From Coleofasciculus sp. B1-GNL1-01 (GTDB taxonomy: Bacteria; Cyanobacteriota; Cyanobacteriia; Cyanobacteriales; Coleofasciculaceae), in the NCBI GenBank assembly GCA_040220235.1, contig JAVJTO010000028.1: a stretch of DNA of 42,254 bases; one strand, 5' to 3'. Both the position numbers and the translations under genes were made by a program. The notes under the pieces are model-generated. The model had not been told where the DNA came from, did no database searches, and saw only the letters and a program-made list of their open reading frames with translations. Below are positions 10,073 through 34,418 of this stretch, piece by piece (position 1 is the stretch's first letter; each line of letters begins with the position of its first letter).

Positions 10073-10819
10073 ATGGGATTACTGGATCACTTTCATCCAC
10101 CGTTGAGTACTCGTCGTCACTGGCACGCTTTCCATAATGCTTGGGCAACGTATATCGCTTCCGATTTAAACCGTCAATTACCAGAAGGATACTTCGCTGA
10201 ACCCAATGTGCAATTTGGGATTGAAATTGATGTGGCAGCATTTGAAGAGATATCATTACTAACCAGTCGAGTATCCGAGAATGTCGTTCAACTCCCAACC
10301 TCCTCTCAACAGGAATGGATACCTTCGTCACCCACGCAAACTGTTCCATTTTCTCCGACAACTGAGGCGGTGGAGGTGAGTATTTTCAATAGCGAAGCGG
10401 GTCCAACATTAATGGCAGCTATCGAGTTGGTGAGTCCCGGTAATAAAGATAGACCCGCGAATCGTAATACTTTTATCGCTAAGTGTCAAACCTACTTACA
10501 GCAAGGAATAGGATTAGTCATTGTGGATGTGGTGACGGGACGAAATGCGAATTTACATGAGGAATTATTACATCAGTTGGCAGTTAGAATGATGCCTCTA
10601 AATACACAACTCTACGCCGCCGCCTATCGGGTTGTGGAACGTCAGGGACAGCCGAATTTAGACATTTGGCAAGAAGCATTGGCGGTGGCAAGTCCCTTGC
10701 CTATAATGCCGTTGTGGTTGCGCGGTGAACTTTGCTTACCTGTGGATTTGAATGCCACCTACCTGCGGACTTGTCGGGAACAGCGAATTGAGGTTGATAC
10801 AGCTAAAATTGTGGAATAG
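10073..10819 (+). CDS. DUF4058-family protein (PD-(D/E)XK nuclease-like fold)
   Basis: MGLLDHFHPPLS...WHAFHNAWA...LPEGYFAE, AAIELVSPGNKDR, LVIVDVVT, LPIMPLWL. Confidence 0.78.
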   Translation: MGLLDHFHPPLSTRRHWHAFHNAWATYIASDLNRQLPEGYFAEPNVQFGIEIDVAAFEEISLLTSRVSENVVQLPTSSQQEWIPSSPTQTVPFSPTTEAVEVSIFNSEAGPTLMAAIELVSPGNKDRPANRNTFIAKCQTYLQQGIGLVIVDVVTGRNANLHEELLHQLAVRMMPLNTQLYAAAYRVVERQGQPNLDIWQEALAVASPLPIMPLWLRGELCLPVDLNATYLRTCREQRIEVDTAKIVE

Positions 10820-10937
10820 ATTTGACGTTTAAACCGGGCGCACGTCGGTGCGCCCCTACAATTCTAATCCACCAAATAAGGTGTGCCACGCCGCCATCGT
10901 GCGTTAGCGTAGCGTAACGCACCATTTTTTAAGGTTT

Positions 10938-13900
10938 TTACCAAGGACTACCAATTAGAGTAAAACCAGCCCAATAGTAAGGATGAGATAAATCACTTTC
11001 TGGGCTATTTACTAAGCTTTTGGCAACGCTTATATTCCGACTGGTTCCAACCAACTGACTTGATTCGATTCGCACTTGAGAACGCAATAGGGCAAGCTGG
11101 GCTTGTCGCAATGCTTCGGCTTTAATCAATACATTCTCGTTGTTAAGTTGCTGATAAAATTCGGTCATTACCGCTAACGTCCCTAAATCATCAACTTTCC
11201 AGAGGCTGGCTAGGGCTGATTTTACCCCCGCTTGTACAGCTAATCCGGCAAACCCCATTTCGGCTTGTTCATTCCCCACAGCGGTTTCACAAGCACTTAG
11301 GGTTAAGAGTTCTACGGTTGGCGGGGCGTACCATTTCACTTGTCGTAATTCGTTTAATCCGACTCGTTGCTGCCAAAGTTGAATGTAGGGATTATAGTTG
11401 CGATCGCGGGGAAATGAGGCGTGGGTAGACAGATGTACAATATCAAAGGGGGTGTCTCGGCGCTGAGTCTTGAAATTCTCTAAAGTAAATTGGTCATTTA
11501 GCAATAATTTTCCTTGCCCAACTTCCGCTAAAATTGTGGATAATTCAATCGGAACAGCAGGTAATGGAGAAAGGGTGGAATCCGGAAACTCGGCAGCCCC
11601 CATAGCTAAGATAGTTGCGTTGTCTAAACGTTGGTAACGGGTATCAGTTAGACTAACACTGGGGATTAAACCAACGCTATAGGTTTCAATCAGAAATTGC
11701 TGTCCGTCGTGTAAGGCTGCTAGGGGAATTGTGCGTAATCCCGCGTCCATTGAGAAAATGAGTGTATCAATATTGAGGGCATCGAGTTCCGTTGCTAAGG
11801 GTTCGATTAGCCACTGGTAGAGTTGTTGAGAACTGGATAAATACCTGTTACTGGTGTAATCATTGAGGGTGTGATAAAATTTCTTCACTTCCCGCCGTAG
11901 GGTTTGATAATTGGCTTGGGGAACCTGTTTAGAAATAGGAGAACCTTCGGGTGGAACGAGAACCAGTTGTAATCCATCGGGATGAGACAATGCGTAAATT
12001 ACCACAGCCCGTTTTCCGGTTTGGGTTTCCATGGTTTGTAGCCTGTTTTGTAGGGAAGCGGTGGTGACTTTTTTCTGGGTAAGATCTTCGCCTAAATAGG
12101 TTTCAAATTGCGCTTCTAATAATTGGTCAATTACGGTGACAATATCCTCGCCGGGATTAATGGGTAGTTGCTGGGGAGAGTCTTGAACGTAGGGGACATT
12201 GAGTGATAATATTTGTTGATTGGGTATTTTCCAGGTAAAGGTGTAGTTTCCGGTTTCAGCATCTTGATTGATTTGAGGATTGACATCAAGAGTATCGCCG
12301 ACAAGAAAGGCGAGAGATTCTAGGGGATTGGGGTTAGATGGAGTCTCTGGAGTTGATTCAGAATTAGAACTAGAGGGTGATGGAGAACCAGAGGTTAATT
12401 GAGGACTAGGATTGGGTTCGGCTGGAAGGGGATTGGGATCAGGTGGCGGGGGTGAAGCCGGAGAGACTGATATAATCTGAATGCGATCGCGGTCTTGTTT
12501 GTGAGTGTGTAGATAGCTTTGTGTGGGGAGAATCTGGCTTTCGGGATTATCGTTTCCTCGCGTTATCGCGCCTTCAGTACCATTGATATCAGCATTCCCG
12601 ACAATAAATGGGGTAATTCCCTCTCCACCATGGCGAATGAAAATTGATCCGCCGTCAGCCACCCCAGCCGTAGAAATACTTGTCTGATTTCCATTTTGAT
12701 CAAGAAAAGTATCCGTAGCTTGGAAAAATTGTCCCGTACTAATCTCAACCGCGCCGCCATTCCCATTCCCTAAACTTTGGCTATCAATTTGACTCACGCT
12801 AATATTACCCGGTGCTTTAAGAGTAATATTACCACCATTATTCAATGCCGAGGTATTTAGACGCTGGGTAGTGATACTTCGTTGATGACTTGTGAGGCTA
12901 ATCCCACCCGGTGAGGTAATATCTTCTGTCAGAATCCTGTTTAAGGTGGTGATATCGATACCCGATGAATTGGTTGTGGTGATCTCACCTTGAACCTGGA
13001 GGTTATTTAAGGGGGTTAAATGACCCACGCGATCGTTAAATTGCACAACTCCTTGTTCTGAAGTTAGGGTTAAATTATAGCCCCCGTTGACGTTATCGTT
13101 AAAGATAATACCACCAGACTCTGATGTAGTCAACGCGACATTATCCGCTAAGGTGACAGGCGCATTCAAGGTAATATTATTTTGGTTGGTTTGAATATCT
13201 CCGCCAATTGTAATATCAGTCTCTGCACTCAGATCAATTTTGCCACCCCTGTCCATAAACGATAAGGCATTAACTTGACCCATGGTAATATTATCCGCCG
13301 CATCAAGGGTGATATTACCACCTAAACCCTCTCCAGACGCCGTAATTAATGCACCCGTGCTAGTGTTAATATTTGCCTCGGTACTTGTGATACTAATATC
13401 GCCGCTATCACCACTAAAGCCACTTAAAAATACAGTAATCGTTCCCGTATCAATATTACCAGGAGCAAGCAGCGTAATATCACCGCCTTTGATACCGCCT
13501 GGAGCGCTAATAATGCCGCCCGTTGTATCAATAATACCACCACTGGTTAGGGTGATATCTCCAGCATTCATAAACCCATGGGAATTGATTGTTTTACCGC
13601 CAGTAATAATATCACCATTTGGTGCATTAAGTAGAATTGCACCGCCTGATCCTGAGGATGAAGATGAATCCAGAACATGGGTGGGTAACTGAGTTATAGG
13701 CTTTAATAAATCAGCGAGTTCTGGATAATCCTCGATCGGTACTAAATCAACCAAATTGAATAGCTCAGATAAATCAGAATTCAGGGCATTAATAGAACCA
13801 TTAGTAACGGTTAAACTAATTGTTCCACTACCAATTTTACCTGAAGACATCAGGTCGCCTGTTATCAGGTTATTTCGAGCGGTAAGCCTAATGTCATTAC

Positions 13901-16172
13901 CTGTGCCATTGAAAGAAAGTGAAGCAATATTACCAGTATTGATGCTGCCATTGGGGGCATTAATGGTTACTTTACCACTCGTTCCACTGAAAACAGCCGA
14001 GCCAAGGCTACCGCTTGAAATATTCCCTTGCTCACTGGTCAGTGTGACGTTACCCGTATCACTCAATCCGGACAAAGAGGCAATAGTTCCTAAAATTTCA
14101 ATATTACCTGTCGCTTGGACTGTAATCTCCCCCCCATTTCCCACAAGGCTTAATGAAGAGATACTACTATTCTGTTCCGTGCCTGTAATTTTAATATTAC
14201 CCCCATTAGCGGTTAGGTTAATCGTTCCAGCATTACCGACACCTCTGTCAATACTACTATTTACTTCACCCAATACTTCAATATTACCATTATTCGCGGT
14301 AACATTAATATCACCAGCATCTCCGAAAGTGGCAAGAGATTGGGCGGCAATCGCACCTGTATAAATGTTGCCTCTATTAGCCGTGAGGGTAATAGTGCCA
14401 CTATCTCCTACTGTTCCGCTTCCCCAGGATCTAAGAATACCCGTGTTGATGTTACCTCCATCGGTCACAATCGTGATATCACCACCATGGCTAAACAGAG
14501 AAGCGATAACGCCACTGGTATTGATATTGCCTACATCAACGTTGACTCCCGCAATGGTAATTGCTCCTCCTTTTGTCGTGATTTCATCCCCTGAATTCAT
14601 TAAAAAATCACCAACACCATTGCCATCGGCATCAGCTTTAAATGTGATAGTTTGACCATCAAGCGTCTGAAGATTTAAGCTGTTACTAGCTATATCCTCA
14701 ATGGTAATATTGTTTGTTGCTTCTAAGGTGAGGTTACCGGATAAGCTTTCCAGTTTTCCTTTAGAAAGGGTAAAGTTATCGGTGGTTTCGTCTGAAAAGA
14801 GAATTGTATTATCATTCAACTCATTATCATTAGCAGCAGGACTCTCTTGATCGACTATCGTGATATTGACCGGATCAAGTAGTACGTTGCCAGCTTGACC
14901 ATTAGCTGCCATGACATCGACAGTTCCCCGAAAAACTAGATTGTTTTTCCCGGAAACTTCCACAAATCCACCATTTCCGGAATTATTCCCGCCACGAGCG
15001 AGAATAGTGCCGTTAAATGTAGTATTATTGTCTGCCCAAGCAATAACACGCCCGCCATCACCATTCAGGAAACTATCAGCCTGAATAATCGAATCCGAAC
15101 TGATAAATGTGTTTTCAGCATTGGGGATGGAACCTTGACCTTGGTAATCTCCACCAATCCGGACAATACCTCCATTATGATTACCAGAGGCATTAATATC
15201 GGCATCGACGAGTCCCACGTTTTCACCAATAATAGTAATGGATTGATTGGCGGGAATGGCAGAGAAGTTGGCAACATTGAGACTGCCAGAAATAATCGAG
15301 GTTCCGGGTTGATTGGGTAAGGTTATCCCGGAATTAGCTAACTGAACGGTGTTATCCGCAGAAACAGTTAATTGGGTGTCTAATTCAGGTGGTGTACCCG
15401 TGAGGAGTTCAGCTAAATCTAAGGGGGTTACGGGGAGAATATTTCCCTGAGTATCCCGGGGCGGTTCTAGTTCTAAACTGAGGAGGTTTCCCGATTGAGC
15501 AATCTGGACTAAATTAGAGCCAGGTACAGCAACAACGGTAATGGTTCCGCCCGGTGCGCTTAATTCACCTGTATTAACCACTTGACCCGCTAATAGGGTT
15601 AAATTGTGGGGGGCGCTGACGGCTAAGTTACCTGCGTTGATAATACTGCCAGAATTGGAGTGATCAAAGGCAAATTGATTAGGAGTACCGATGAGATTTG
15701 AATAGTTATTGTCGCCAAAAGCATTAAACCAATGGTTCTGGTTAAATCCAATCCCTGTGGCGGTGGTGGCGGTAAAATTGCCGGGGACGTTTAATTGGGC
15801 GTTGGCACCGAAGATAATACCGGATGGGTTGATTAAAAATAAGTTGGCATTACTCCCGGTAACTTGGATTAAGCCGTTAATGATTGAGGGATTATTGCCA
15901 GTAACTCGGCTGAGAATATTCTGAATATTGGGCGAGGAGAGGAAGTTGGCAATTTGCTCAGATTCTAGTCCAAATTGCTGAAAACTGTGGAAAAGATTGG
16001 TATTATCGGGGGATAAAGTGCCGCCCGTGATGTCAACGCGATCGCCTGTGGTATTAACGACGGTTCCGGTATTGTCGTTGGCGGGGATTATGGGTTGGGC
16101 GAGGGTAGGGGGAGAGGGGTTTAGGGTTAAGAGGGCGAGGAGAATTGTTGGGGGGAGAAGATGGGGTTTCAT
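10938..16172 (-). CDS. Large secreted filamentous-haemagglutinin (TPS domain) beta-helix protein with C-terminal CHAT caspase-like protease domain
   Basis: Signal peptide, NLFHSFQQF / NILSRVTG / LFLINPSGIIFG (TPS haemagglutination domain), long G/N/T/I-rich repeats and a Pro/Ser linker. CHAT motifs IPLAALHDG, VHLSTH (His), LSACETAVG (Cys), SLWKVDD, HPYYWAGF. Confidence 0.93.
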   Translation of the reverse strand: MKPHLLPPTILLALLTLNPSPPTLAQPIIPANDNTGTVVNTTGDRVDITGGTLSPDNTNLFHSFQQFGLESEQIANFLSSPNIQNILSRVTGNNPSIINGLIQVTGSNANLFLINPSGIIFGANAQLNVPGNFTATTATGIGFNQNHWFNAFGDNNYSNLIGTPNQFAFDHSNSGSIINAGNLAVSAPHNLTLLAGQVVNTGELSAPGGTITVVAVPGSNLVQIAQSGNLLSLELEPPRDTQGNILPVTPLDLAELLTGTPPELDTQLTVSADNTVQLANSGITLPNQPGTSIISGSLNVANFSAIPANQSITIIGENVGLVDADINASGNHNGGIVRIGGDYQGQGSIPNAENTFISSDSIIQADSFLNGDGGRVIAWADNNTTFNGTILARGGNNSGNGGFVEVSGKNNLVFRGTVDVMAANGQAGNVLLDPVNITIVDQESPAANDNELNDNTILFSDETTDNFTLSKGKLESLSGNLTLEATNNITIEDIASNSLNLQTLDGQTITFKADADGNGVGDFLMNSGDEITTKGGAITIAGVNVDVGNINTSGVIASLFSHGGDITIVTDGGNINTGILRSWGSGTVGDSGTITLTANRGNIYTGAIAAQSLATFGDAGDINVTANNGNIEVLGEVNSSIDRGVGNAGTINLTANGGNIKITGTEQNSSISSLSLVGNGGEITVQATGNIEILGTIASLSGLSDTGNVTLTSEQGNISSGSLGSAVFSGTSGKVTINAPNGSINTGNIASLSFNGTGNDIRLTARNNLITGDLMSSGKIGSGTISLTVTNGSINALNSDLSELFNLVDLVPIEDYPELADLLKPITQLPTHVLDSSSSSGSGGAILLNAPNGDIITGGKTINSHGFMNAGDITLTSGGIIDTTGGIISAPGGIKGGDITLLAPGNIDTGTITVFLSGFSGDSGDISITSTEANINTSTGALITASGEGLGGNITLDAADNITMGQVNALSFMDRGGKIDLSAETDITIGGDIQTNQNNITLNAPVTLADNVALTTSESGGIIFNDNVNGGYNLTLTSEQGVVQFNDRVGHLTPLNNLQVQGEITTTNSSGIDITTLNRILTEDITSPGGISLTSHQRSITTQRLNTSALNNGGNITLKAPGNISVSQIDSQSLGNGNGGAVEISTGQFFQATDTFLDQNGNQTSISTAGVADGGSIFIRHGGEGITPFIVGNADINGTEGAITRGNDNPESQILPTQSYLHTHKQDRDRIQIISVSPASPPPPDPNPLPAEPNPSPQLTSGSPSPSSSNSESTPETPSNPNPLESLAFLVGDTLDVNPQINQDAETGNYTFTWKIPNQQILSLNVPYVQDSPQQLPINPGEDIVTVIDQLLEAQFETYLGEDLTQKKVTTASLQNRLQTMETQTGKRAVVIYALSHPDGLQLVLVPPEGSPISKQVPQANYQTLRREVKKFYHTLNDYTSNRYLSSSQQLYQWLIEPLATELDALNIDTLIFSMDAGLRTIPLAALHDGQQFLIETYSVGLIPSVSLTDTRYQRLDNATILAMGAAEFPDSTLSPLPAVPIELSTILAEVGQGKLLLNDQFTLENFKTQRRDTPFDIVHLSTHASFPRDRNYNPYIQLWQQRVGLNELRQVKWYAPPTVELLTLSACETAVGNEQAEMGFAGLAVQAGVKSALASLWKVDDLGTLAVMTEFYQQLNNENVLIKAEALRQAQLALLRSQVRIESSQLVGTSRNISVAKSLVNSPESDLSHPYYWAGFTLIGSPW

Positions 16173-16206
16173 GACTTTTGATTGAGTGGCTATCGGTTCA
16201 TGTTGA

Positions 16207-16251
16207 TTTAACGCAGAGGTACGCAGAGGTAAGCGCAGAGGGCGCAGAGGG
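16207..16251. repeat. CGCAGAGG tandem repeat element
   Basis: tttaacgcagaggtacgcagaggtaagcgcagagggcgcagaggg; an inverted copy lies at 37779-37823. Confidence 0.75.
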
Positions 16252-16323
16252 TTTGTAGGTGGAGGAGGGTGGGTTTAGTTCAGGGATTGGTTGTTGCGGA
16301 AAGGGTATCGGTAAAATCTGCCC

Positions 16324-17625
16324 CTATCGGTTTAATTGGTGTTCAAGGTTCTGAATCTGTTCGGAATAGCCGAGGGTTTGATATCCTTGGAGGGCGAGGG
16401 TGAACCAGTGCATGGCTTCGTCGTGATTACCAAGTGCGGTTTCAATGCGCCCTAGGTGGTATTGGGCGTGGGTTTTTTCTTCGATGTCGGTGGTGTGGGA
16501 AAGTTCGATCGCTTTTTTGTAGTAAGGTTTAGCTTGGGGGGGAAGGGCGAGGTGATAGAAGTAGCGATCGCCTATTTTGCGATAGATGGCTGCACTTTCT
16601 ACGCCGTCAGCAATCAGGGATTCTAAGGATGCGATCGCTTGAGTATGAAGTTGATGTTTACTATAGAGTGTGGCTAAAGCTAGGGCTTTGGCAGTTTGAT
16701 TCCAGGGTTGCTGGGTAATTTGGGTGGCTTGAGTGCGAATCTGTTGGGCTTGTTGTTCGTCGAGTCGGCTGAAATTTAGTCCGCCAGGTAGGGGGGATTC
16801 ATCCAGTGAGGATTCTCCGGTATCGGCTTCAATAATGAGTAGATAATCACCACCGGGTTGCAGGGGGGGTTCTCCTGGATAGGTGATTTGGGTATCGCTG
16901 ACTTGGGTTGTCCATTCGATTCCATCTCCCTCCAGGGTGACAGTATAGCTGTTGGCGTCAGGTAATCCATTCCAGTGTAAGAGGGGTTTATCGGTGAGAA
17001 TCGCGGTGCGCCGAGGAGTGATAATATAAGGAATCCTATTGTTCCAAGCGATATCGCCACGATGGGGACAGTTATAAGTACCTGGGGTACATTCGGTTTG
17101 TTCAGTAGCGGTGGGACAAGGATTGAGGCGATTGTTTCCAGAGGATAGGGTTTGGCTTGATAAGTCTGCACATTGCAAGATTACTTCGGAGGCGTTGGCG
17201 ATGGATAATTGATCCTCTGGATAAATGTCTGTACCAATTTGCGGTTCAATTCTACGTCCACTACGCTGAATTTGTACATCACCTGTGATCTGAAGAATTT
17301 GTCCGTTAGTAAGGGGTTGAGATGGCAGGTTTAACGCAGAGTGTAGGGGATATCTAGGAACCGACTCAATATTCCCTTGATCCCTTACCAATTTTTCCCT
17401 GTTCGTAGTCGGCACTTTAGTGCCAGAATTACAAACGCCCTGAGGACAAAAGCTAACATTAGCGACAGTCTGGTCAAAAAAAATCCAACGAGATAAAAAT
17501 TTTTGATCCTCTAAATCTTGTCGGCGTTCTACCTGTTTTATGACTCCCTCATTCCCAACACCCAAGGCATTCCCCTCAAGGAGAAGGAAAATCAAACTTA
17601 TCAACGTCACAAGTTTCCAGTACAT
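16324..17625 (-). CDS. Secreted protein with FecR-like beta domain, DUF928/Ig-like middle region and C-terminal TPRs
   Basis: Signal peptide. GQILQITGDVQIQRSG...GTDIYPEDQL...VILQCADLS resembles the FecR-type domain. PYIITPRRT..LTDKPLLHW..YTVTL..YPGEPPLQPG is followed by TPR-like helices. Confidence 0.72.
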   Translation of the reverse strand: MYWKLVTLISLIFLLLEGNALGVGNEGVIKQVERRQDLEDQKFLSRWIFFDQTVANVSFCPQGVCNSGTKVPTTNREKLVRDQGNIESVPRYPLHSALNLPSQPLTNGQILQITGDVQIQRSGRRIEPQIGTDIYPEDQLSIANASEVILQCADLSSQTLSSGNNRLNPCPTATEQTECTPGTYNCPHRGDIAWNNRIPYIITPRRTAILTDKPLLHWNGLPDANSYTVTLEGDGIEWTTQVSDTQITYPGEPPLQPGGDYLLIIEADTGESSLDESPLPGGLNFSRLDEQQAQQIRTQATQITQQPWNQTAKALALATLYSKHQLHTQAIASLESLIADGVESAAIYRKIGDRYFYHLALPPQAKPYYKKAIELSHTTDIEEKTHAQYHLGRIETALGNHDEAMHWFTLALQGYQTLGYSEQIQNLEHQLNR

Positions 17626-17806
17626 GATACATCTACTCCTTTAACCTGGTGTCAATGTTTCAATTGCTCGGATCACCTCCACTACCATTTATACTGCTTT
17701 AAGTCTGTGTAGTTAAAGCCAAGCAACGAATCGTAATATGCTGTAATACACTCTAGTCAAGGTGGTTTCGGGTTGTACTTTAAAATACATCATTACTTAT
17801 TCCTCC

Positions 17807-19594
17807 TTATTGTGCTGACAAATACTCTTGAGCTAAACCCATACACTTATCTTGTTCGGGAACATTATAATTTGAGTATTTCAGTGTATTTTTCCAAGCT
17901 ACTCTTGCCTCTTGCTGGTTGCCTTTGGCTTCTAGGACTTGGGCTAATAAACAATAAGCATGAGGGCTATCCACTGCAAGTGCGATCGCATTCCTTAAAT
18001 CGGCTTCAGCTTCCTCTAATCGCTGTTGTTCCCATCGTATCCAACCGCGATTCTTTAAGCAAGCAGCTCTTACCCCATCATAATCGCTATGTTCTAAACA
18101 CTCCCAGGTTAGTTTCAGTGCAATTTCCAGATCTCCCTGTTGCAAATGCAAGCGAGCCAATTCCGCGTAAGCATCAGGAAGTCCTCGCAGGGCGGCTTGA
18201 TTAAACCGTTGTTTAGCACAGTCTATATCATCAAGACTCTCATCACATAACCAGGCTAAATTATAATAGGGTTGAGGATAATTTAGATTGAGCCAACTAG
18301 CGATATGATAGTAGAATTGCGCCCTTAATAACTGGTTGTTGTCTTGATTTTTTATTCCCCACTTATTCGACAAAACTGCCAGTTGTGAACCGAATGAAAA
18401 GTAACTGCTAATCACTCCCGCTAAAACAATCGCCACCCATTTCGATAAACTTTTCCAGGGAATCTTTGTATCTTCCTCTCCCCCATTAACCAAGGGTTTC
18501 CAACTGGGTGGAATTACAGCCGGATGTTGACAAATGACGGGTAGCCAACTTGCGCCTGGTAATTCATGTTCTAATCCCCGCAGTTGTTCTCTCGCTTGGC
18601 GTACCGATAAATGAAACGGTTCTCCGGTGGCAAAGTTTTTTAAGAAGTATTTCAAAAAGGCTTGTGCCACTGGATCAGCGACAGGTTCGCGCATGACAAT
18701 CATTGGCGGGAGAGGAATCTGATCCGCCGCCAATTCTCGGACTAATCCCAACCCATCACAGGAATTAAAAATGGCTAATTTTAATCCGTTATCAACGGCT
18801 TTTCTCATCGCTTCCTTGACTTCACCCATTCTCAGGCTATTATTCTGTTCATTTTGATTGATGTATAGCCGTCCATGAGTGCTATTATTATCACTTTGGG
18901 AATGTCCAGCAAAGAAAATAATATCCCAGCCAGCTTGCCAAAGTTGTTCAGTCAATTCTTGTCGATCCGGTTCAACCAACCAGGTAATTTTAGCTCCTGA
19001 TAATTGTTTCAGTAATTCCCGATCTTTCTCCAAATTGATCCCGGCGCTGTTGCCTAAAATAGCTAATATTTTGACGTTAGCCTTGCGGCGGTGGGGAATA
19101 ACTGAACTGGCAGGTGGGGGATAATCTGGTGTACTGAACGCTAATTCCCCTAGGCGATACTCGGCAAAAAAGTCCCAAAGATGCCACGGTAATTTCCAGA
19201 CTTCTGGATCATCGCTTTCAATAATGACCCGCACGGGTTCAGCGGGATTTAATTGAGTTCTTAGTTCTGATTCAATTTTGCGAAATCCTTCACTCTTTAA
19301 CCAAGTATTAATTTGAGTTTCTAACTGCTGAGAAATATGATTAAAATCTCCCTCAGAACAATGGGTGATACCTGATTCAACAATATCTATCCCGCCCCGA
19401 TAGCTATGACTTTGATAAAGTGCTGTATAGAGGAGCCGCCAATCTCTGAGGAGTTGCGGAATATCGGGGGCTGGTGGCAAACTTCCTGTGAATTGCATAT
19501 AAAGATTCCCCACTTCTCCCAACCCTGCTGTCACCGAACTAAATCCAGAGCTGAAGTTACCTGAGCCGAGATTTAAAACAACGATTTTACTCAT
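17807..19594 (-). CDS. Membrane-anchored CHAT (caspase-like) protease with C-terminal TPR domain
   Basis: LPWHLWDFF, IIFFAGHS (His), LAIFNSCDGLG (Cys), MIVMREPV, ASWLPV. TM segment WVAIVLAGVISSYFSFG, then Cys-rich TPRs. ATG 19594 has an AAGGAG RBS; the track's TTG 19720 start lies in a MITE relic. Confidence 0.88.
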   Translation of the reverse strand: MSKIVVLNLGSGNFSSGFSSVTAGLGEVGNLYMQFTGSLPPAPDIPQLLRDWRLLYTALYQSHSYRGGIDIVESGITHCSEGDFNHISQQLETQINTWLKSEGFRKIESELRTQLNPAEPVRVIIESDDPEVWKLPWHLWDFFAEYRLGELAFSTPDYPPPASSVIPHRRKANVKILAILGNSAGINLEKDRELLKQLSGAKITWLVEPDRQELTEQLWQAGWDIIFFAGHSQSDNNSTHGRLYINQNEQNNSLRMGEVKEAMRKAVDNGLKLAIFNSCDGLGLVRELAADQIPLPPMIVMREPVADPVAQAFLKYFLKNFATGEPFHLSVRQAREQLRGLEHELPGASWLPVICQHPAVIPPSWKPLVNGGEEDTKIPWKSLSKWVAIVLAGVISSYFSFGSQLAVLSNKWGIKNQDNNQLLRAQFYYHIASWLNLNYPQPYYNLAWLCDESLDDIDCAKQRFNQAALRGLPDAYAELARLHLQQGDLEIALKLTWECLEHSDYDGVRAACLKNRGWIRWEQQRLEEAEADLRNAIALAVDSPHAYCLLAQVLEAKGNQQEARVAWKNTLKYSNYNVPEQDKCMGLAQEYLSAQ

Positions 19595-19616
19595 AGCAAC
19601 TCCTTTGATGAATGGG

Positions 19617-19728
19617 TTAGGGAACAGGTAGGGAGCGTCATTCGTAATTTGTCCTTTGTTCTTTGTAAGAGGTTGATGTTCTTTGACAAAACTTAATCCA
19701 GTTAAGTTTCTTTTCCTCAACCTACTTA
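19617..19728. mobile_element. Degenerate MITE family A relic
   Basis: ttagggaacagg...acttaatccagttaagtttcttttcctcaacctactta matches one end of the 4102-4218 element. Confidence 0.6.
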
Positions 19729-19930
19729 GTTGACCGATCCATTAATTATTTCACCCAAATTATACTATAACTTTGATGAATAGGATTAAAAATGTAATCC
19801 GTAGGGTCGTTAGCAAAGCGTAACGCACCATTGTTTAAGTCGGTTCGCAAAAATCAAATCAACGACATTAAATTTCGTCAACACACCTCAACCCTTTACC
19901 AATGACCAAAGACCAATGACAAAGGACAAA

Positions 19931-20932
19931 TTATAGTGTAAAAGATTCGGTAACACTGACACCATTTAACACAACCTGCAAACCAAAATTAGTGCCTGGT
20001 TCGACTCGAAATTGTCGGAGTTGAACCCATAAATCTAACCCTCGCGATTGTACCGCTTGTAGCCTATCTCCAGACTCTGAAAGTAAAGCCAATGTCAGAT
20101 TTCCAGGTAAATAGCGATCACCCTCCGTAGGATGGACTTGAACGAACACACTAACCTTGCGATCGCGTTCTTGAGTTAGTGCCATCACCAAAGCCAGACG
20201 TTGACCCCCCAACTCCATGCCCAAATCAATTAATTTAGCTCGCATAATATCGGCATCTGGAAAAAGTTTAACGTCAGTTTTAAATCGACGAAATGCAGGT
20301 AAAGTTTGTCCTGATATCGACGGCTCACTGTCAGACTCTAATAACTCTTCAAGCCGTTGCCAACCCGCCGCAAACTGATTAGCAAACCACTGATTAAGAT
20401 TGACAATCGGGTTAGTTAATTGCTCAAAATACTCGAATAACGCATCAAGGGGTTGTAACTCTGGCAAAAACACCTGACCTATGCCAGCCGTTTGGGTAAA
20501 TCCCAACAGTCTAGATTCTTTTCGCTTCGGATCAATCGCCACAAAAACATAGCCAATGCGTTCCTGCCAAACCTCTGGCGGAATCGAGCCAAATTCGGGA
20601 ATCCAGCGATTGTTTTCAGAGCCTGAATAATTCTCGAATACTTTCACCGGACGACATTCTAACGTCCCCAACCCTTTAACCTTAAGATCTGCTACATCTG
20701 CCCCTAAACAGACAACAGGATTGGCAAAATCACTGTGTTCAATATCAGTATCGATTTCCATCAGTTCCAAGTAATCCCGAACCGCCCAAACTGCCAACGT
20801 ATTCAAATAAACTTGTTCTGCTTTTTCGGCTGTCGGTTGTTTTTGGGCAAACCCTTGTGCCATTTGGATTATTTTGGGCATAATGGGCATGGGCAAAGCA
20901 TTCTTTAAAAGTAATTCTACGCTAGTCATCAT
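19931..20932 (-). CDS. DUF1822-family protein
   Basis: KAEQVYLNTLAVWAVRDYL, DVADLKVKGLGTLECRPV, RIGYVFV..LLGF, VNLNQWF...GWQ, RAKLIDLG, VQVHP...YLP.NL.L.LLSESG. Confidence 0.88.
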   Translation of the reverse strand: MMTSVELLLKNALPMPIMPKIIQMAQGFAQKQPTAEKAEQVYLNTLAVWAVRDYLELMEIDTDIEHSDFANPVVCLGADVADLKVKGLGTLECRPVKVFENYSGSENNRWIPEFGSIPPEVWQERIGYVFVAIDPKRKESRLLGFTQTAGIGQVFLPELQPLDALFEYFEQLTNPIVNLNQWFANQFAAGWQRLEELLESDSEPSISGQTLPAFRRFKTDVKLFPDADIMRAKLIDLGMELGGQRLALVMALTQERDRKVSVFVQVHPTEGDRYLPGNLTLALLSESGDRLQAVQSRGLDLWVQLRQFRVEPGTNFGLQVVLNGVSVTESFTL

Positions 20933-20980
20933 TCGCTCCTTTCCAGTCCAATTATTGTTACGACATTAATTAATGATTCT

Positions 20981-21607
20981 CTATAAATATCCTTGCGATT
21001 CACCAAATTTGCGTAATAAGGGAACACAATGACGCTGGTAAAATGTTGCCAACGTGGAAACCTTACAATTAAATTCTGCTTCTAGTTTTCTCCATTCTGT
21101 CTCTGGTGGTAAGCGACGTAAGATTAAAACTTGACAAGTTATATCGGGACGTCCTCTAATATGAGAGTTGGATAATTCCCCCTCTGGATCAGATTCTGCC
21201 CACTGTCGGGTTTCTGCCAAAATCGGCGGAATATCAGGGTGGGTATCCGGCAAATTCTCAATCGGATCAGTTTGATTTTCCCAGTCTGGAGGCGGTTGAG
21301 CTTCATGATGTTGTTGTTGAGATTGTTCTCGGAATAAATCCTTCAGTCGTTTTTTAAGATAGGCATCCAACCAAGTTGTCACCGTGGCTCTCGCTGGATC
21401 ATAGTTCTCGATATTGCGGCACAGATACAACCAGGTGAGTTGTAGTGCTTCTTCATAATCAGGGGTATGCTCCCGCCATAGTTTCCCCGATTGTGCGATC
21501 GCCCGAATCAGTTGATCCAAGCAGCGACGCCGTTGCAGACTGCGCCGGGGATACTGGCAGGTTTGAGCGACAAGCTGACGCAGTTGTTGATCAATATCCA
21601 CACCCAT
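20981..21607 (-). CDS. Sigma-70-family (ECF-like) RNA polymerase sigma factor of the DUF1822-associated type
   Basis: Region-2-like YEEALQLTWLYLCRNIENYDPARATVTTWLDAYLKKRLKD and C-terminal HTH-like EWRKLEAEFNCKVSTLATFYQR. It lies immediately upstream of DUF1822. Confidence 0.78.
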   Translation of the reverse strand: MGVDIDQQLRQLVAQTCQYPRRSLQRRRCLDQLIRAIAQSGKLWREHTPDYEEALQLTWLYLCRNIENYDPARATVTTWLDAYLKKRLKDLFREQSQQQHHEAQPPPDWENQTDPIENLPDTHPDIPPILAETRQWAESDPEGELSNSHIRGRPDITCQVLILRRLPPETEWRKLEAEFNCKVSTLATFYQRHCVPLLRKFGESQGYL

Positions 21608-21980
21608 GAAATCACCTGAACTCGTTGCTATTGGTTTTGGAGCGGGTTGTTACCCTTTCATCCTCGGTTAAACTCATCCTTAATCATCATGTCAATTGAG
21701 TCTTGCACTCAGTTATCGCCACAACTCTCTAGTTTTTCGCAAAATTCACCATTTTTTGTGCGATTCATCTTGTCTGACATTTTTATATATATAGGGTACG
21801 GCAATGCCGTATCCCTACGGAATCTAGTTAATTCAACGATATCTTCAACGCTCTGGGGTTTTATGTAAAGGTTTGTAACGATTTTTCCCGGATTGCGAAA
21901 CTTTGAGAAATACCACCGATATCTCAGCAGAGATTTAGAAAATTCATCGACGCGACTTGAATTTAGGAGAAATTTGAACA

Positions 21981-22676
21981 ATGACTAATATCTACCAAAA
22001 ATTAGCCCTTGCCACCGCTGGCACAGCTTTAGGTTTGGCTGCGGTTGGAGTTCATCCAGCTCAGGCATCAAAGATAACGTTTGATGAGTTAAATTCTGGT
22101 GTAAGTAGCTTTTCTTTTGATGGTGATGGAAATGGAATTAACGACATAGTTTTTAGCACGACAGATTCGGCTGGGTTTAACACAGTCGGTCCAGGTTCAT
22201 TTATGAGCTATATCCAAGAACCTGGACTTGAGGGGACAACATTACTGGATGTTGATTTGAGGGCAGACTTTCTATTTGGAGCTGAAGACTACCTCACGTT
22301 TGGGTTTGCCCTTGATGACTTCTTTGAAAGTTCGGATACTTGGGCTGCCTTGGAAGTGTACGATAGTGATGGTAATTTGCTGGCTTCTGATTTCGAGTTT
22401 GGACAATACACATCACCAGATGGTATAAGTCAAGGCAATTTCCCAGAAGGTATTATTGAAACCAGCTTTACCGGAGTAGCCTCTTACGCCTTGTTCGACT
22501 TCAACAATGATAACAGTGGTGGTCAACGCTACATTATTGACAATTTTGAAGGAGTATTCGGCGATACGGAGGTATCTTCAGTACCCGAACCTTTGACTAT
22601 TCTCGGTTCAGCCACAGCTCTCGGTTTTGGGGCTTTATTCAAACGGCAACAGTCCAGAAAGCAAAAAAAAAGCTGA
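21981..22676 (+). CDS. PEP-CTERM exosortase-sorted surface protein
   Basis: Signal peptide ending PAQA, acidic Gly/Phe-rich body, C-terminal VPEPLTILGSATALGFGALF plus basic tail KRQQSRKQKKS. Confidence 0.93.
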   Translation: MTNIYQKLALATAGTALGLAAVGVHPAQASKITFDELNSGVSSFSFDGDGNGINDIVFSTTDSAGFNTVGPGSFMSYIQEPGLEGTTLLDVDLRADFLFGAEDYLTFGFALDDFFESSDTWAALEVYDSDGNLLASDFEFGQYTSPDGISQGNFPEGIIETSFTGVASYALFDFNNDNSGGQRYIIDNFEGVFGDTEVSSVPEPLTILGSATALGFGALFKRQQSRKQKKS

Positions 22677-22866: not shown

Positions 22867-24924
22867 TTAATCCTCCATCTGTTTATATTCGGTGATATCG
22901 ACGCTACAGCCAATCAACCGATAAGGCTTATCTTTAGCATCTCGCACCGCTACACCACGGGAAAGAAACCAGCGAATCGTGCCATCTTTTTGCACCATCC
23001 GGTGTTCCATGCCATAGTGAGTTGTTGACCCGTCTAAATGAGCATTGATTTGATTTTCAACCTCTTGGCGATCATCGGGATGAATGAGATCTAACCAAGC
23101 CGCTTTACTATTCGCAATCTCCTGATCCTCATAGTGCAGCATGGTTTTCAAATTGGACGCCAGGTAGAATTCACCATTCTCCAGATTCCAATCCCAAATT
23201 CCCACATTACCCGCTTTTAAGGCGATCGCTTGGCGTTCCTCACGGCTGCGAAGATCGACAACCATTTGCTCCTGTTTCGCCAATTGCTCTTGTAGCAGGG
23301 TATTGGCTTGAGACAGTTGGGCGGTTCGTTCCTGATCCCGTTTGGCGGAGGCGGTTTCTAGCTGCTTGCGCTGGCTAATATCTCGCTCGATCGCCATCCA
23401 GTGGGTATAGTCCCCATTTTCATCAACCACGGGGACAATATTCAGTTCCACCCAAAACTCGGAACCATCTTTGCGATAGTTGATCAATTCCGCCCGTATG
23501 GGTTCCCATCGACATAGGGTATCACGAATTTTATCGGCTTGGGCGCGATCGGTTTTGGGTCCTTGTAAGAAGCGCGGTGTTTTGCCAATCACTTCTTCTG
23601 GGGTGTACCCTGTCATCCGAGTAAAGCCTTGGTTGACATACACGATTCGAGGACCGGGTTTGTCAATGGGGTGGGCTTCAGTAATCACGATCGCGTCATT
23701 AGCATTGAATACCGCCGATTCTAATAACCGCAACCGTTCCTCAGCTTGTTTGCGTTTGGTAATATCCCGAACAAAACTCAGGGACACTAAGCGATCGCGA
23801 TATTCAATCACCCGCGAACTAATTTCCACCTGCACCGGAGAACCATCTTTACGCCGCAGTGCATGTTCAAAAATAATACTCCCCGTTGCTTGCATCCGTT
23901 GACTGATGGTGCGTTGGCGATCCTCACCAATCGGCACATCTATATCACGAGTCTTCAGATTCAGCAGTTCTTTGCGGGTGTATCCTAGTCGTCTGGAGGC
24001 ATTCTGATTCGCATCTAAAATCCGACTGGTGGATAGGTCAATAATGAAGATGGAATCATTGGCGTATTCAAATAAGTGACGGTAATTCGCTTCCGATTCC
24101 CGCAGCGATTCTTCAACTCGTTTGCGTTCAGTAATGTCTCTAGCCGTACATATTACCGCTTCCACACTCTGGTGGTTACCCAGAATCGGACTTAGGATGT
24201 ACTCGTAATGACGCACACCCCCAAGGGTGGGATAACTGATTTCATCGGTCAAAGGGCGTCGAGTGGCGAAGACAACTTCCCGTTGGTTATTAAATAGTTC
24301 GAGTCCCTCAGGCGGTAGGTTTAACTGCTGCACCGTTTTGCCCAAAATTTCCGCTTGGGATAAGCCAAACAGTTGCGCGATCGCCAGATTGACGTAGGTA
24401 AATCGTCCCATGCGATCCAAGACGCAGATAGGATCAGGAGACGCCGAGAGAACTTGGTCAAAGATTCGCGCTTGCTGCTGAATCCGCGTCGTCAGTTCCC
24501 GCAGTTCTGACTCATCCTGTTCCTGGGCAATGATCGCATCATTCAGATCCAGTTGGGCGACTTGGCTAGGAGTTTTCCAGGCTTGATCTGTATCCCCAAT
24601 TTGATGATGATTAATCGTTCCAGTCACCAACGTGCCAGGGATGGCTTGCTGAACCGTTTGATAGGGTTGATTCGCTGTCTGAGTTTCTTGTGAGAGTTGA
24701 TTAAGCTGTTCTTTTAACTGCTTGTATTTTTTGTCTAATGTAGTGAGTTGTTCCTGAAGTTCCTCAATCGTTGTTGAGTGCGATTCCTCAAGCGGGAAAC
24801 CAAATGCCTGCTTGAGTGCCTCAATTACGACCGCCGTCCGATCCCGACCTGATGCCTCAGCCCGAGACCGAATTTCCTGACTTAGTTGTTCTGGAAGTCT
24901 AAATGTTGCTATTTTACTGACCAT
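22867..24924 (-). CDS. One-component regulator: N-terminal ribbon-helix-helix-like domain, coiled coil and four PAS/PAC domains, no catalytic output domain
   Basis: IATFRLPEQLSQEIRSRAEASGRDRTAVVIEALKQAF (RHH/CopG-like). PAC ends RDITERK, RDITKRK, RDISQRK and VDITEYK. The ORF stops right after the last PAC. Confidence 0.85.
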   Translation of the reverse strand: MVSKIATFRLPEQLSQEIRSRAEASGRDRTAVVIEALKQAFGFPLEESHSTTIEELQEQLTTLDKKYKQLKEQLNQLSQETQTANQPYQTVQQAIPGTLVTGTINHHQIGDTDQAWKTPSQVAQLDLNDAIIAQEQDESELRELTTRIQQQARIFDQVLSASPDPICVLDRMGRFTYVNLAIAQLFGLSQAEILGKTVQQLNLPPEGLELFNNQREVVFATRRPLTDEISYPTLGGVRHYEYILSPILGNHQSVEAVICTARDITERKRVEESLRESEANYRHLFEYANDSIFIIDLSTSRILDANQNASRRLGYTRKELLNLKTRDIDVPIGEDRQRTISQRMQATGSIIFEHALRRKDGSPVQVEISSRVIEYRDRLVSLSFVRDITKRKQAEERLRLLESAVFNANDAIVITEAHPIDKPGPRIVYVNQGFTRMTGYTPEEVIGKTPRFLQGPKTDRAQADKIRDTLCRWEPIRAELINYRKDGSEFWVELNIVPVVDENGDYTHWMAIERDISQRKQLETASAKRDQERTAQLSQANTLLQEQLAKQEQMVVDLRSREERQAIALKAGNVGIWDWNLENGEFYLASNLKTMLHYEDQEIANSKAAWLDLIHPDDRQEVENQINAHLDGSTTHYGMEHRMVQKDGTIRWFLSRGVAVRDAKDKPYRLIGCSVDITEYKQMED

Positions 24925-33514: not shown

Positions 33515-33769
33515 ATGACGTTGCCAGAATTACAAAAGCAAGCTTTACAATTACCGATTGGCGATCGCTGGAAATTAGTGCAAACTCTGCTGGAGTCTTT
33601 ACAATGGGAAACTCGTTCCGTGGTGAAAAAGGGTAACTTGTCTCGGTTGCGAGGTATTGCTAAAAGTACAAATAAGTTGAGTGATGAAGACATTACCACA
33701 GATTATGTTAACTATCTCACTACAAGTCCGACTAAATTAACAAAGGTAAAATATGACGGTTCAAGATGA
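33515..33769 (+). CDS. Small antitoxin-like (addiction-module-type) protein overlapping the restriction endonuclease start
   Basis: AGGAG RBS then MTLPELQKQALQLPIGDRWKLVQTLLESL...LSRLRGIAK...DYVNYLT. The family call is by resemblance only. Confidence 0.6.
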   Translation: MTLPELQKQALQLPIGDRWKLVQTLLESLQWETRSVVKKGNLSRLRGIAKSTNKLSDEDITTDYVNYLTTSPTKLTKVKYDGSR

Positions 33770-34418
33770 TCGTCGAGAAAACGAACTAATTAAGCTCTTT
33801 CAACTTCAAAAACCTGCTAACGCGACTCGCAGCGGTATAGATGCTATTCTCTATTTCAATGGATGCTATATCCCCTTTGAATTGAAATCAACAACAAGTT
33901 CTTCTATAACAACTGCTCGTGATTTTGGGTTAGATCATATTCAAAAATGGCAAGGTAAACACTGGCTATTTGGTTTCTACAATAAGACAGGGACAACATT
34001 AAACTATTGCCTGTACGGTTCTCCTCAATCCATGGAAAAATGGATCAGTGATAAAAAAGCGTATATCTTACCGGACTATACACTCGCTCAATTTGCACCT
34101 GAATTGCTAACTCTTAATCTACTATACGAAATTCTAGGGCAAAAACAGGTTTATACACTGGAAGACGCTCGCCGTCTGCAAAAAAAGCAGTATACAATTC
34201 AGCAGTATCGTAACCAGATGGATCTAAACCAGGGTTATTCACCTGAAAGAATGCTTTCCATCTTAAAGGATAGATGTCGGTATTTAATCGAGAGAGGTGC
34301 AACCTTAAATAATCCTCACATTCCAGCATCTTATTTTCAAGATTGGGAACGGATCACCGAAAATCATGCTCAACGTCTGCGCGAACTGGTAGCAGAAGCC
34401 CTTCAGGATAAAGCTTGA
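33753..34418 (+). CDS. Putative Type II restriction endonuclease (PD-(D/E)XK)
   Basis: GIDAIL...PFELKST catalytic-like motif; convergent with and overlapping a C5 methyltransferase. Confidence 0.75.
   Translation: MTVQDDRRENELIKLFQLQKPANATRSGIDAILYFNGCYIPFELKSTTSSSITTARDFGLDHIQKWQGKHWLFGFYNKTGTTLNYCLYGSPQSMEKWISDKKAYILPDYTLAQFAPELLTLNLLYEILGQKQVYTLEDARRLQKKQYTIQQYRNQMDLNQGYSPERMLSILKDRCRYLIERGATLNNPHIPASYFQDWERITENHAQRLRELVAEALQDKA

Follow-up and report, generated by a model that had tools for sequence, protein, structure and literature searches.

The FecI/FecR system relays an outside signal to an ECF sigma factor. In the HetF-PatU3-HetZ system of Anabaena PCC 7120, heterocyst development is controlled by PatU, an inhibitor that is cleaved and is co-transcribed behind its sigma factor, HetZ. 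HetF, a CHAT-TM-periplasmic TPR protease, cuts PatU3 between R117 and S118, i.e. after an arginine with a serine next to it, and the fragments are then degraded (PMC9457339; PMC13342950). HetZ, which is highly divergent and carries three insertions in about 390 aa, proved to be a true sigma factor, and hetF is not linked to these genes, its product acting at the divisome (PMC9457339; PMC13342950). In type III-E CASP, the CHAT protease Csx29 is activated in the cytoplasm under RNA guidance and cuts the sigma inhibitor Csx30 outside its sigma-binding N-domain; later degradation has been invoked (PMC10028731). DdvA of Myxococcus xanthus couples TPRs and a CHAT domain to the ECF sigma DdvS across the membrane; in the available part of the source, this CHAT domain lies in the periplasm, lacks a complete active site and forms one protein with an anti-sigma that binds both sigma regions of DdvS (PMC11506125). 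Kaur, Iyer, Burroughs and Aravind (2021) catalogued by computer neighbourhoods in which an EACC2-caspase, with a constant N-terminal domain, a caspase and variable sensors, stands beside an ECF sigma and DUF1822; they describe DUF1822 as a TPR protein and suggest that the system is activated by autopeptidase activity (PMC8195603).

The window analysed here is the whole stretch of 42,254 nucleotides from the mat-forming cyanobacterium Coleofasciculus sp. B1-GNL1-01. An earlier note on this DNA had described five co-oriented genes and a divergent PEP-CTERM gene, and all six ORFs were found where it had placed them. The five genes lie on the (-) strand and encode a divergent sigma-70-like protein of ECF size (208 aa; 20981..21607), a DUF1822 protein (333 aa; 19931..20932), a membrane CHAT protein (595 aa; 17807..19594), a secreted protein with a beta domain, an Arg189-Gly linker, a DUF928/FnIII-like domain and TPRs (433 aa; 16324..17625), and a TPS exoprotein with a Pro/Ser linker and a C-terminal CHAT domain (1744 aa; 10938..16172). 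All five genes were confirmed together with their domains and with the two His/Cys dyads whose motifs the note had reported (H231/C279 and H1584/C1628), and its interpretation is partly supported by the computations.

As in the EACC2-caspase neighbourhoods, a CHAT protein with a variable C-terminal sensor is encoded next to sigma and DUF1822 genes, and the supplement, in the part available, includes a locus with a beta-rich and TPR gene and a TPR-caspase gene downstream; the neighbourhood itself is thus already catalogued (Kaur 2021, PMC8195603). What its authors proposed, in the available sections, is autoproteolysis and not cleavage of an anti-sigma. An anti-sigma role, a cut site, a PatU link and a DUF928 link do not appear in those sections (PMC8195603). 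New here are the predicted sigma binding, the candidate Arg215, the likeness to PatU, the split forms of DUF1822, the DUF928-like protein with its Arg-Gly, and an upstream motif. Type III-E CRISPR and FecI/FecR, which the note had taken as models, are replaced by the cyanobacterial HetF-PatU3-HetZ as the nearest mechanism. In contrast to type III-E CASP with its RNA-guided activation, a scan of 26 window ORFs detected no Cas family. The same scan found no TonB-dependent receptor, no FecR domain was detected at the locus, and the candidate inhibitor, in contrast to FecR, is soluble. In contrast to DdvA, as far as the available part of that source goes, the CHAT domain is predicted to be cytoplasmic and has an intact active site, with a soluble candidate inhibitor that is a protein of its own (PMC11506125).

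The 208-aa protein has the ECF (group 4) layout, with regions 2 and 4 only in about 200 aa. It matched Pfam Sigma70_r2 with 25.2 bits (cut-off 24), its family profile matches RpoE (2q1z) in both regions (E 6e-5), weakly so in the region-4 stretch, and one paralogue passes the TIGR02937 cut-off. Among the short-class proteins encoded upstream of DUF1822, Sigma70_r4_2 was detected in just 7/35 and Sigma70_r2 in 2/35. Membership of the HetZ family was rejected, as the HetZ model (NF037963) gave no match and the profile comparison with HetZ reached P 2.8% over 59 columns. Searching the solved structures by sequence with the 208-aa protein produced no clear match.

The Pfam DUF1822 domain is assigned with E 1e-63, and the model of the protein comprises an N-terminal PD-(D/E)xK-like domain, a disordered linker and a C-terminal Ig-like domain. 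No TPRs are present in the predicted structure, in contrast to the TPR protein described in the available sections of Kaur 2021. No clear match came out of sequence searches against solved structures, and Foldseek gave weak Ig-like matches only. The complex of DUF1822 with the sigma-like protein was predicted with a score of 0.88 in three runs, the best control scoring 0.00; the score mark used is reached by 116/157 solved complexes and by 2/215 mismatched pairs. The runs agreed in at least 90% of contacts, with a partner pLDDT of at least 81, and place residues 11-170 of DUF1822 against residues 21-63 and 127-208 of the sigma-like protein. DUF1822 is predicted to hold sigma via its nuclease-like fold and to be a sigma-factor inhibitor, in line with the binding role that the earlier note had given it.

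The C-terminal domain of DUF1822 resembles that of PatU weakly but reciprocally. Profiles of the two C-domains, whose limits were set after the likeness was seen, match with P 67% and E 5e-5; reversed profiles gave E 0.048-0.071, and none of 12 unrelated pairs did better than E 0.038. Each was also the top Atlas match of the other (0.80 and 0.85, scores below 0.9 being leads only). Both are Ig-like in the models, and 13 entries are common to their two 50-entry fold lists, Ig-like folds being common in general. The full-length profiles match weakly (P 1.8%, E 0.027), the two families do not cross-detect in HMM searches of the 19,639 ORFs of the genome, and PatU is helical where DUF1822 is nuclease-like. 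As judged from these profiles, DUF1822 is likely a distant relative of PatU. None of the openly available papers listed in a literature search links the two.

The longest frame of the membrane CHAT gene opens at TTG 19720, and ATG 19594 has AAAGGAG just upstream. The 595-aa product given in the earlier note is the better call, because of this upstream sequence and because it matches the starts of the paralogues. The protein comprises a CHAT domain (E 4e-13), TPRs and a constant N-terminal domain of about 160 aa which is common to all six paralogues, its EACC2 name resting on architecture. The note had proposed a TM segment, and one modest helix is indicated, with a best 19-residue hydropathy of 1.56 at residues 389-407; the values at this segment in nine orthologues are 1.3-2.0, with Lys/Arg on its N-terminal side. 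The CHAT domain is predicted to be cytoplasmic and the TPRs outside, and the dyad is intact in 65/67 DUF1822-linked CHATs.

This CHAT-TM-TPR layout with a His/Cys dyad is that of HetF. The membrane CHAT matches the genome's own HetF with P 98.4% over 229 columns, and a quick tree groups the DUF1822-linked CHATs with HetF, apart from the secreted CHATs. Nevertheless, the 595-aa protein is not HetF itself, since it scores 26 bits on NF045509 against a cut-off of 1200; the best match in the genome, on contig C74, reaches 941 bits and is itself below this cut-off. As the genome has its own hetZ-patU (C154) and hetF (C74), the window genes are not those orthologues, and the 208 aa of the sigma-like protein contrast with the larger HetZ. 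A sequence search of solved structures with the CHAT alignment gave nothing clear. The membrane CHAT is presumably active and arginine-specific.

The linkage of these genes was surveyed at 96 DUF1822 loci. A sigma-like gene is directly upstream of DUF1822 in 83/96 and a CHAT gene directly downstream in 61/96, the full core being present at 50/96 loci (32/48 genomes), which is far above chance and bears out the linkage that the earlier note had proposed. The cassette is widespread: in five other genomes, 17/21 EACC2-CHAT matches have a DUF1822 match at most 3 kb upstream, and genomes hold up to 10 DUF1822 matches. Coleofasciculus sp. B1-GNL1-01 has six triplets, with TPR, CHASE2 or periplasmic-binding sensors; nSTAND-WD40 is also among the sensor types fused C-terminally to CHAT. 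DUF1822 also occurs in split forms, the N-domain-only proteins following a sigma gene (3/3) and the C-domain-only proteins preceding an EACC2-CHAT gene (3/3). At 28/96 loci, a cytoplasmic CHAT is absent within 8 kb downstream. Tree-like co-variation of the cassette genes (Mantel rho 0.48-0.67, 35 triplets) was not used as evidence of contact, because linked genes are inherited together; within genomes, the correlation of sigma and DUF1822 distances is not significant (rho 0.29, p 0.28, 16 pairs).

The candidate cut site is Arg215 of DUF1822 (codon 20288..20290, (-) strand), within a disordered linker of variable length (residues 202-219, pLDDT <50). An arginine is found there in 77/102 diverse and 80/83 close homologues; the next residue is most often a serine, and is an arginine (R216) in the window protein. 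A hydrophobic-Arg-Ser motif is present in 44/102 linkers, compared with a shuffle mean of 6.7, and in 23/51 compared with 3.6 after clustering at 50% identity. Arg215 falls on Arg255 of PatU, the arginine cut by HetF, in a global profile alignment; the PatU arginine is kept in 33/34 sequences, with a serine next in 18, and in both families it is a conserved residue of a flexible loop ahead of the C-domain. Some DUF1822 members have a helical insert after the linker arginine. At the CHAT-less loci, the arginine is kept at the column in 14/28 and a motif is present in 23/28, which may mean that it is cut in trans or has a different function. The membrane CHAT likely cuts DUF1822 at this conserved arginine, as far as sequence comparison can indicate. 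The release of sigma by cleavage, as put forward in the earlier note, gains a candidate site but would need an additional step, since the predicted cut is outside the predicted sigma interface and would not by itself free sigma. Csx30 shows the same gap (PMC10028731).

The 231-aa divergent surface protein (21981..22676, (+) strand) matches cyano_PEP with E 2e-16 (TIGR04155). A bipartite motif found before these sigma genes (21862..21901, (+) strand) faces this gene and ends 80 bp ahead of its start. It consists of a perfect RpaB-type (HLR1-like) direct repeat (21862-21879), a 14-bp spacer and a second box (21894-21901), and it is repeated before tandem divergent genes in three relatives (L072, L073, L075). 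As it contains an RpaB-type repeat, it need not be a promoter for the 208-aa protein. No genome-wide regulon emerged: motif scores above 13 bits gave 107 matches compared with 101 in the reversed genome, and the core pattern stands ahead of 1/65 PEP-CTERM-like genes genome-wide. A gapped 4-mer motif search gave nothing above shuffles. The PEP-CTERM gene is a candidate target at this locus, where the conserved motif faces it; PEP-CTERM neighbours are not the rule, being present at 6/96 DUF1822 loci.

By analogy, the best reading of the cassette is a signal-gated version of HetF-PatU3-HetZ, with exchangeable sensors on a similar working scheme. DUF1822 would hold the ECF-like sigma through its N-terminal domain and dock on the protease through its Ig-like domain; a signal would trigger the outside TPR domain, the CHAT domain would then cut DUF1822 after Arg215, and further degradation would free sigma, whose targets may be the sigma genes themselves and, here, the PEP-CTERM gene. 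We give this switch a probability of roughly 0.55. The gene order, domains, dyads, arginine and linkage come from sequence; the complex, linker disorder and folds are predicted. The autoproteolytic receptor put forward in the available sections of Kaur 2021 (PMC8195603), in which CHAT would cut itself or act as a scaffold and signal to sigma-DUF1822 by binding or sequestration, without DUF1822 as a substrate, seems rather unlikely to us. It fits the persistence of the arginine without an adjacent CHAT and the C-domain travelling with the CHAT gene, which suits docking as well as cleavage, and self-cleavage was also raised for DdvA in the part of that source at hand (PMC11506125). Nevertheless, it leaves unexplained the hydrophobic-Arg-Ser motif in a disordered, length-variable linker and its match to the site in PatU at which the related HetF cuts. 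That DUF1822 is a co-activator or stabiliser of the sigma-like protein, or that the latter is a DNA-binding regulator and no longer a sigma, proteolysis then turning output off, appears improbable. The weak sigma profile matches, the RpaB-type repeat and an ECF-like core that alone is not enriched genome-wide (23 matches compared with 11-22 at other spacers) point this way, whereas the predicted interface covers both sigma regions, as does that of DdvA on DdvS in the available text (PMC11506125), the match of the family profile to RpoE extends over both regions, and HetZ, likewise highly divergent, is a true sigma. Slightly less credence is given to a conflict module in which cleavage would free a latent PD-(D/E)xK nuclease, the sigma-like protein being its inhibitor or targeting subunit; this is very improbable. 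The best fold match of residues 35-177 is I-Ssp6803I (Z 8.4, rmsd 3.4, 118 aligned, a Z near the level common to unrelated models), followed by Holliday-junction resolvases (Z 7.7, 6.7), and D82, E92 and R94, which are not among the named residues of the predicted sigma interface, are conserved among the close homologues (83, 82 and 80 of 83). However, D82 and E92 are kept in about half of the diverse set (48/102 and 49/102), the catalytic Lys position is mostly Arg, and the predicted sigma interface also lies on this domain.

The extent of the system was also considered. The three-gene core may be the unit, with the PEP-CTERM gene and the genes of both secreted proteins as loose neighbours without a signalling role, which is doubtful but has some weight: the exact five-gene order is found at 2/96 loci, PEP-CTERM-like genes number 65 in the genome by pattern and are seldom adjacent, and no TpsB transporter gene is present among the 26 window ORFs scanned. 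In contrast, the gene order is kept in 5/6 Coleofasciculus loci, and the DUF928-like gene and a secreted CHAT occur together at 25/42 CHASE2/TPR-sensor loci compared with 3/26 other-sensor and 0/28 CHAT-less loci. A more speculative and rather doubtful extension is a trans-envelope caspase-like cascade of two proteases, of which the heterocyst switch would be a special case: the secreted CHAT would cut the DUF928-like protein at Arg-Gly, the product would trigger the TPR/CHASE2 sensor, and the cytoplasmic CHAT would cut DUF1822 at Arg215, sigma then switching surface genes on. On this view, CHAT proteases would have one group of substrates cut at arginine, to which PatU, DUF1822 and a third PatU-like protein linked to HetF would belong. 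HetF-PatU-HetZ would be one developmental branch of a signalling class spread across the cyanobacteria, at up to about ten copies in a genome.

The DUF1822 cassettes belong to the larger of the cyanobacterial signalling families that await experiments; with a candidate substrate, residue and partner, they can be tested by two point mutants, C279A and R215A. Kinship of DUF1822 with PatU would place the heterocyst-commitment switch HetF-PatU3-HetZ in a family and indicate where it came from, and the paralogues with sensors would give access to the question of what triggers HetF-type proteases. A fixed protease-inhibitor-sigma core that accepts exchangeable sensors could, in addition, serve as a synthetic signalling part.

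With respect to the secreted neighbours, the 433-aa protein is a DUF928/FnIII-like and TPR protein, the TPRs being found by domain scan. The FecR-like label of the earlier note was dropped, as FecR was found in 0/33 family members and the FecR model had no match at the locus. Its N-terminal beta domain gave only a weak retention-module match (E 0.009), and the arginine of Arg189-Gly is present at this column in 25/35 homologues. The TPS exoprotein matches PF05860 (E 4e-44), TIGR01901 and CHAT (E 2e-65), its signal peptide being judged by eye. It groups with the secreted CHATs in the quick tree, together with the TPS-CHATs of loci L130 and L131, and eight ShlB-family genes lie on other contigs of the genome. 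Generic promoter and terminator scans of the locus were uninformative; metatranscriptome contigs of a related strain, which are mute on strand, start and level and may derive from DNA, cover 30/30 locus bins in four runs.

The five minus-strand open reading frames, namely a sigma-like gene (20981..21607), DUF1822 (19931..20932), CHAT-TM-TPR (17807..19594), a secreted 433-aa protein (16324..17625) and a secreted TPS-CHAT protein (10938..16172), and the divergent PEP-CTERM gene (21981..22676, plus strand) were all found where the earlier note had placed them. Pfam and NCBIfam agreed with its domain calls: Sigma70_r2, DUF1822, CHAT with TPR, TPR, TPS with CHAT, and cyanobacterial PEP-CTERM, respectively. 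The His/Cys dyads of both CHAT proteins are present (H231/C279 in the membrane CHAT, H1584/C1628 in the secreted one). The FecR-like label of the 433-aa protein was dropped, as it gave no FecR match. The start codon of the membrane CHAT gene is most likely ATG 19594. The hydropathy of the sole membrane segment of its product is moderate (1.56; 1.3-2.0 in orthologues), and basic residues precede this segment, which fits the topology predicted from the sequence, the protease being on the cytoplasmic side of the membrane and the TPR domain outside. The closest homologues have Coleofasciculus as their named source. Palindromes and short repeats occupy the intergenic stretches 19600-19930, 16170-16320 and 10790-10930, on which metatranscriptome contigs accumulate as multi-copy elements.

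The cassette is real, and its gene set is already catalogued rather than new: the consulted part of Kaur et al. 2021 (PMC8195603) describes EACC2-caspase genes with variable sensors, mostly adjoining ECF sigma and DUF1822 genes, and proposes their activation as autopeptidases. Six of the eight DUF1822 matches in this genome belong to sigma-DUF1822-CHAT triplets. The CHAT proteins of these triplets differ in their C-terminal sensor, which is TPR (one, in the window), CHASE2 (three) or periplasmic-binding domains (two). Across the phylum, 139 of 201 genomes had a DUF1822 match, in many cases a weak single one in a small genome. Neighbourhoods were surveyed among the best 150 matches, beyond which lie 155 weaker ones; after removal of six own-genome rows, every third of the other 144 was left out, giving 96 loci in 48 genomes. 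The linkage that the earlier note had expected is conserved, all three genes being adjacent at 50 of the 96 loci, a count that, like the others, includes related genomes and is hence not of independent cases. With HMMs iterated from the genes of this genome, a sigma-like gene stands immediately 5' of DUF1822 at 83/96 loci, a call backed in part by Pfam (Sigma70_r4 in 27 of 48 long-class members, Sigma70_r4_2 in 7 of 35 short-class members). A cytoplasmic-type CHAT gene lies immediately 3' at 61/96, within 8 kb at seven more, and is absent at 28, of which three are close to the end of a contig. Conversely, by coordinate comparison in five genomes, 17 of 21 EACC2-CHAT matches have a DUF1822 match at most 3 kb upstream. 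The exact five-gene order is rarer than the core triplet (2/96); it is kept at five of six Coleofasciculus loci, with the fourth gene shortened in one.

Other arrangements were also observed. The stretch examined at C17:8948-11733 in this genome holds a long sigma-like gene and DUF1822, whose linker keeps Met-Arg, but no cytoplasmic CHAT; family f5 (L083-L091) has many pairs of this kind. A secreted-type CHAT gene is directly 5' of DUF1822 at loci L106, L108, L109, L110 and L119, and at L106, L109 and L119 it sits between the sigma and DUF1822 genes.

The best-supported mechanism, with a probability of about 0.55, is that the cassette is a sensor-gated version of HetF-PatU3-HetZ, the protease, cleaved inhibitor and sigma of Anabaena PCC 7120. 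The N-domain of DUF1822 would hold the sigma until the membrane CHAT, gated by its sensor, cut DUF1822 at Arg215, after the manner of HetF on PatU3. The literature searched mentions neither this substrate role of DUF1822, nor its cut site, nor a link to PatU.

Sigma binding, although predicted from models, is the firmest part. The DUF1822 model (mean pLDDT 86) comprises an N-terminal alpha/beta domain, a disordered segment (202-219) and a C-terminal beta-sandwich, which is Ig-like by fold comparison; PD-(D/E)xK nucleases are the nearest fold for the N-domain (I-Ssp6803I, Z 8.4, rmsd 3.4, 118 aligned). The sigma:DUF1822 pairing suggested in the earlier note is favoured by complex prediction, with 0.88 in three runs against 0.00 for the best control; the mark for this score is attained by 116 of 157 solved complexes versus 2 of 215 mismatched pairs. 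The runs share at least 90% of their contacts, partner pLDDT is at least 81, and DUF1822 residues 11-170 are predicted to contact both sigma regions. As a sequence search found no solved DUF1822 relative, the risk that the prediction passes by memory of other sigma complexes is lower, but not zero. Split forms agree with the N-domain as the sigma binder: in stretches fetched from the five genomes of the coordinate comparison, proteins with the N-domain only follow a sigma gene (3/3) and those with the C-domain only precede an EACC2-CHAT gene (3/3). This genome encodes a fourth protein with the C-domain only, and it lacks a neighbour of this kind. In the split forms (L253, L254, L255; L246, L247, L248; L006:6329-7177), either the N-domain carries a short helical tail and the gene comes after a sigma gene, or the C-domain is joined to other N-termini.

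Cleavage at Arg215 ranks next in firmness. This residue, within the predicted disordered linker, is conserved in 77 members of a diverse set of 102 homologues and in 80 of the 83 close ones, exceeding every other linker column, and Ser follows it in 46 of the 77. Hydrophobic-Arg-Ser occurs in 44/102 linkers versus 6.7 in shuffles (23/51 versus 3.6 after clustering at 50% identity). According to the part of Xing et al. 2022 (PMC9457339) consulted, HetF, in which a TM segment joins CHAT to periplasmic TPRs, cleaves PatU3 between R117 and S118; we placed this site through homologue L181, which bears the residues given there for positions 116-121. The corresponding arginine is conserved in 33 of 34 PatU proteins and lies in a low-confidence loop of the PatU model. 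Against the cut-site reading, the residue after Arg215 in the window is Arg, the arginine is still present at 14 of 28 CHAT-less loci, and Arg215 is outside the predicted sigma interface. For Csx30, Strecker et al. 2022 (PMC10028731) report a cut that likewise falls beyond the domain that binds the sigma.

The cassette proteases are clearly related to HetF: the window-type CHAT matches the HetF of this genome in profile comparison (P 98.4%), and a quick tree places the cassette CHATs on one side with HetF. Homology between the C-domains of DUF1822 and PatU is fairly probable, each supporting line being weak. The C-domain profiles of DUF1822 and PatU align with each other (P 67%, E 5e-5, against E 0.038 or worse for reversed and unrelated controls), and when the C-terminal halves are aligned globally (P 13%, E 5e-4), Arg215 coincides with PatU Arg255. 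In the Atlas, PatU clusters rank first for DUF1822 175-333 when DUF1822 clusters are excluded (0.80), and PatU 230-398 retrieves DUF1822 clusters ahead of any other named cluster (0.85, ten of ten). At the C-terminal end, both models form Ig-like sandwiches that are similar in extent, and their fold lists have 13 entries in common. The two families do not cross-detect in HMM searches of the ORFs of this genome. A third family strengthens the arginine-site pattern: a protein of 202 aa, encoded next after a HetF-like CHAT gene (C95:10447-12880, locus L213), aligns with the helical part of PatU (P 82%, E 1e-5), and its family has arginine at the PatU site in 30/30 members, Met-Arg in 29/30 and a detected CHAT gene at 20/30 short loci. 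This CHAT protein has an FHA-like C-terminus. The two form a candidate third protease-substrate pair, for which 60 of 81 genomes in the order yield matches. The genome also carries, unlinked to the window cassette, hetZ-patU (C154:3332-5612), two more HetZ-like genes (C168:51257-52513 and C63:109561-110733) and a hetF orthologue (C74:2676-5237).

The secreted cascade is the boldest part of the proposed mechanism, and we regard it as unlikely. The middle of the 433-aa protein is similar both to DUF928 (P 47%, E 2e-4, against E 0.19 for the reversed control) and to FnIII (E 3e-6). Its Arg189 is conserved in 25 of 35 homologues, mostly with Gly next, and an arginine is kept in 38 of 39 DUF928 proteins. 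Of the loci with CHASE2 or TPR sensors, 25/42 have a DUF928-like gene together with a secreted CHAT, compared with 3/26 for other sensors and 0/28 for loci without CHAT. Matches to the dyad motifs are present in 41 of the 44 secreted CHATs. These observations suggest that the secreted CHAT may process the DUF928-like protein into a ligand.

With regard to output, a bipartite motif was found 5' of short-class sigma genes in a discovery set of 41 regions, those of this genome included. Under a matrix built from other genomes, the best-scoring positions in this genome are at two paralogous loci, followed by the window site in third place. In the window the motif (21862..21901, plus strand) faces the PEP-CTERM gene; in relatives it recurs before tandem divergent genes. 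Its spacing appears to resemble that of ECF promoters. The first half reads as a perfect HLR1 repeat on the reverse strand, and HLR1 is described in the literature as the RpaB site. Three of the 13 perfect HLR1 repeats in this genome are at these cassettes, and exactly these three are accompanied by the second box. The motif may serve as a sigma promoter, as an RpaB site or in both roles. Another PEP-CTERM-like gene, at C157:6735-8492, has an HLR1-like repeat and second box upstream, and a 529-aa ORF on C119 near 17490, possibly a duplicated fragment, has a start resembling the C119 sigma and the same upstream motif.

Elsewhere in the window, 22867-24924 encodes a four-PAS protein of 685 aa in which Pfam found no output domain. 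A C5 DNA methyltransferase converges on an unannotated 221-aa ORF (33753-35599), and a zeta-toxin-like AAA protein is encoded directly behind uvrA (41026-41619).
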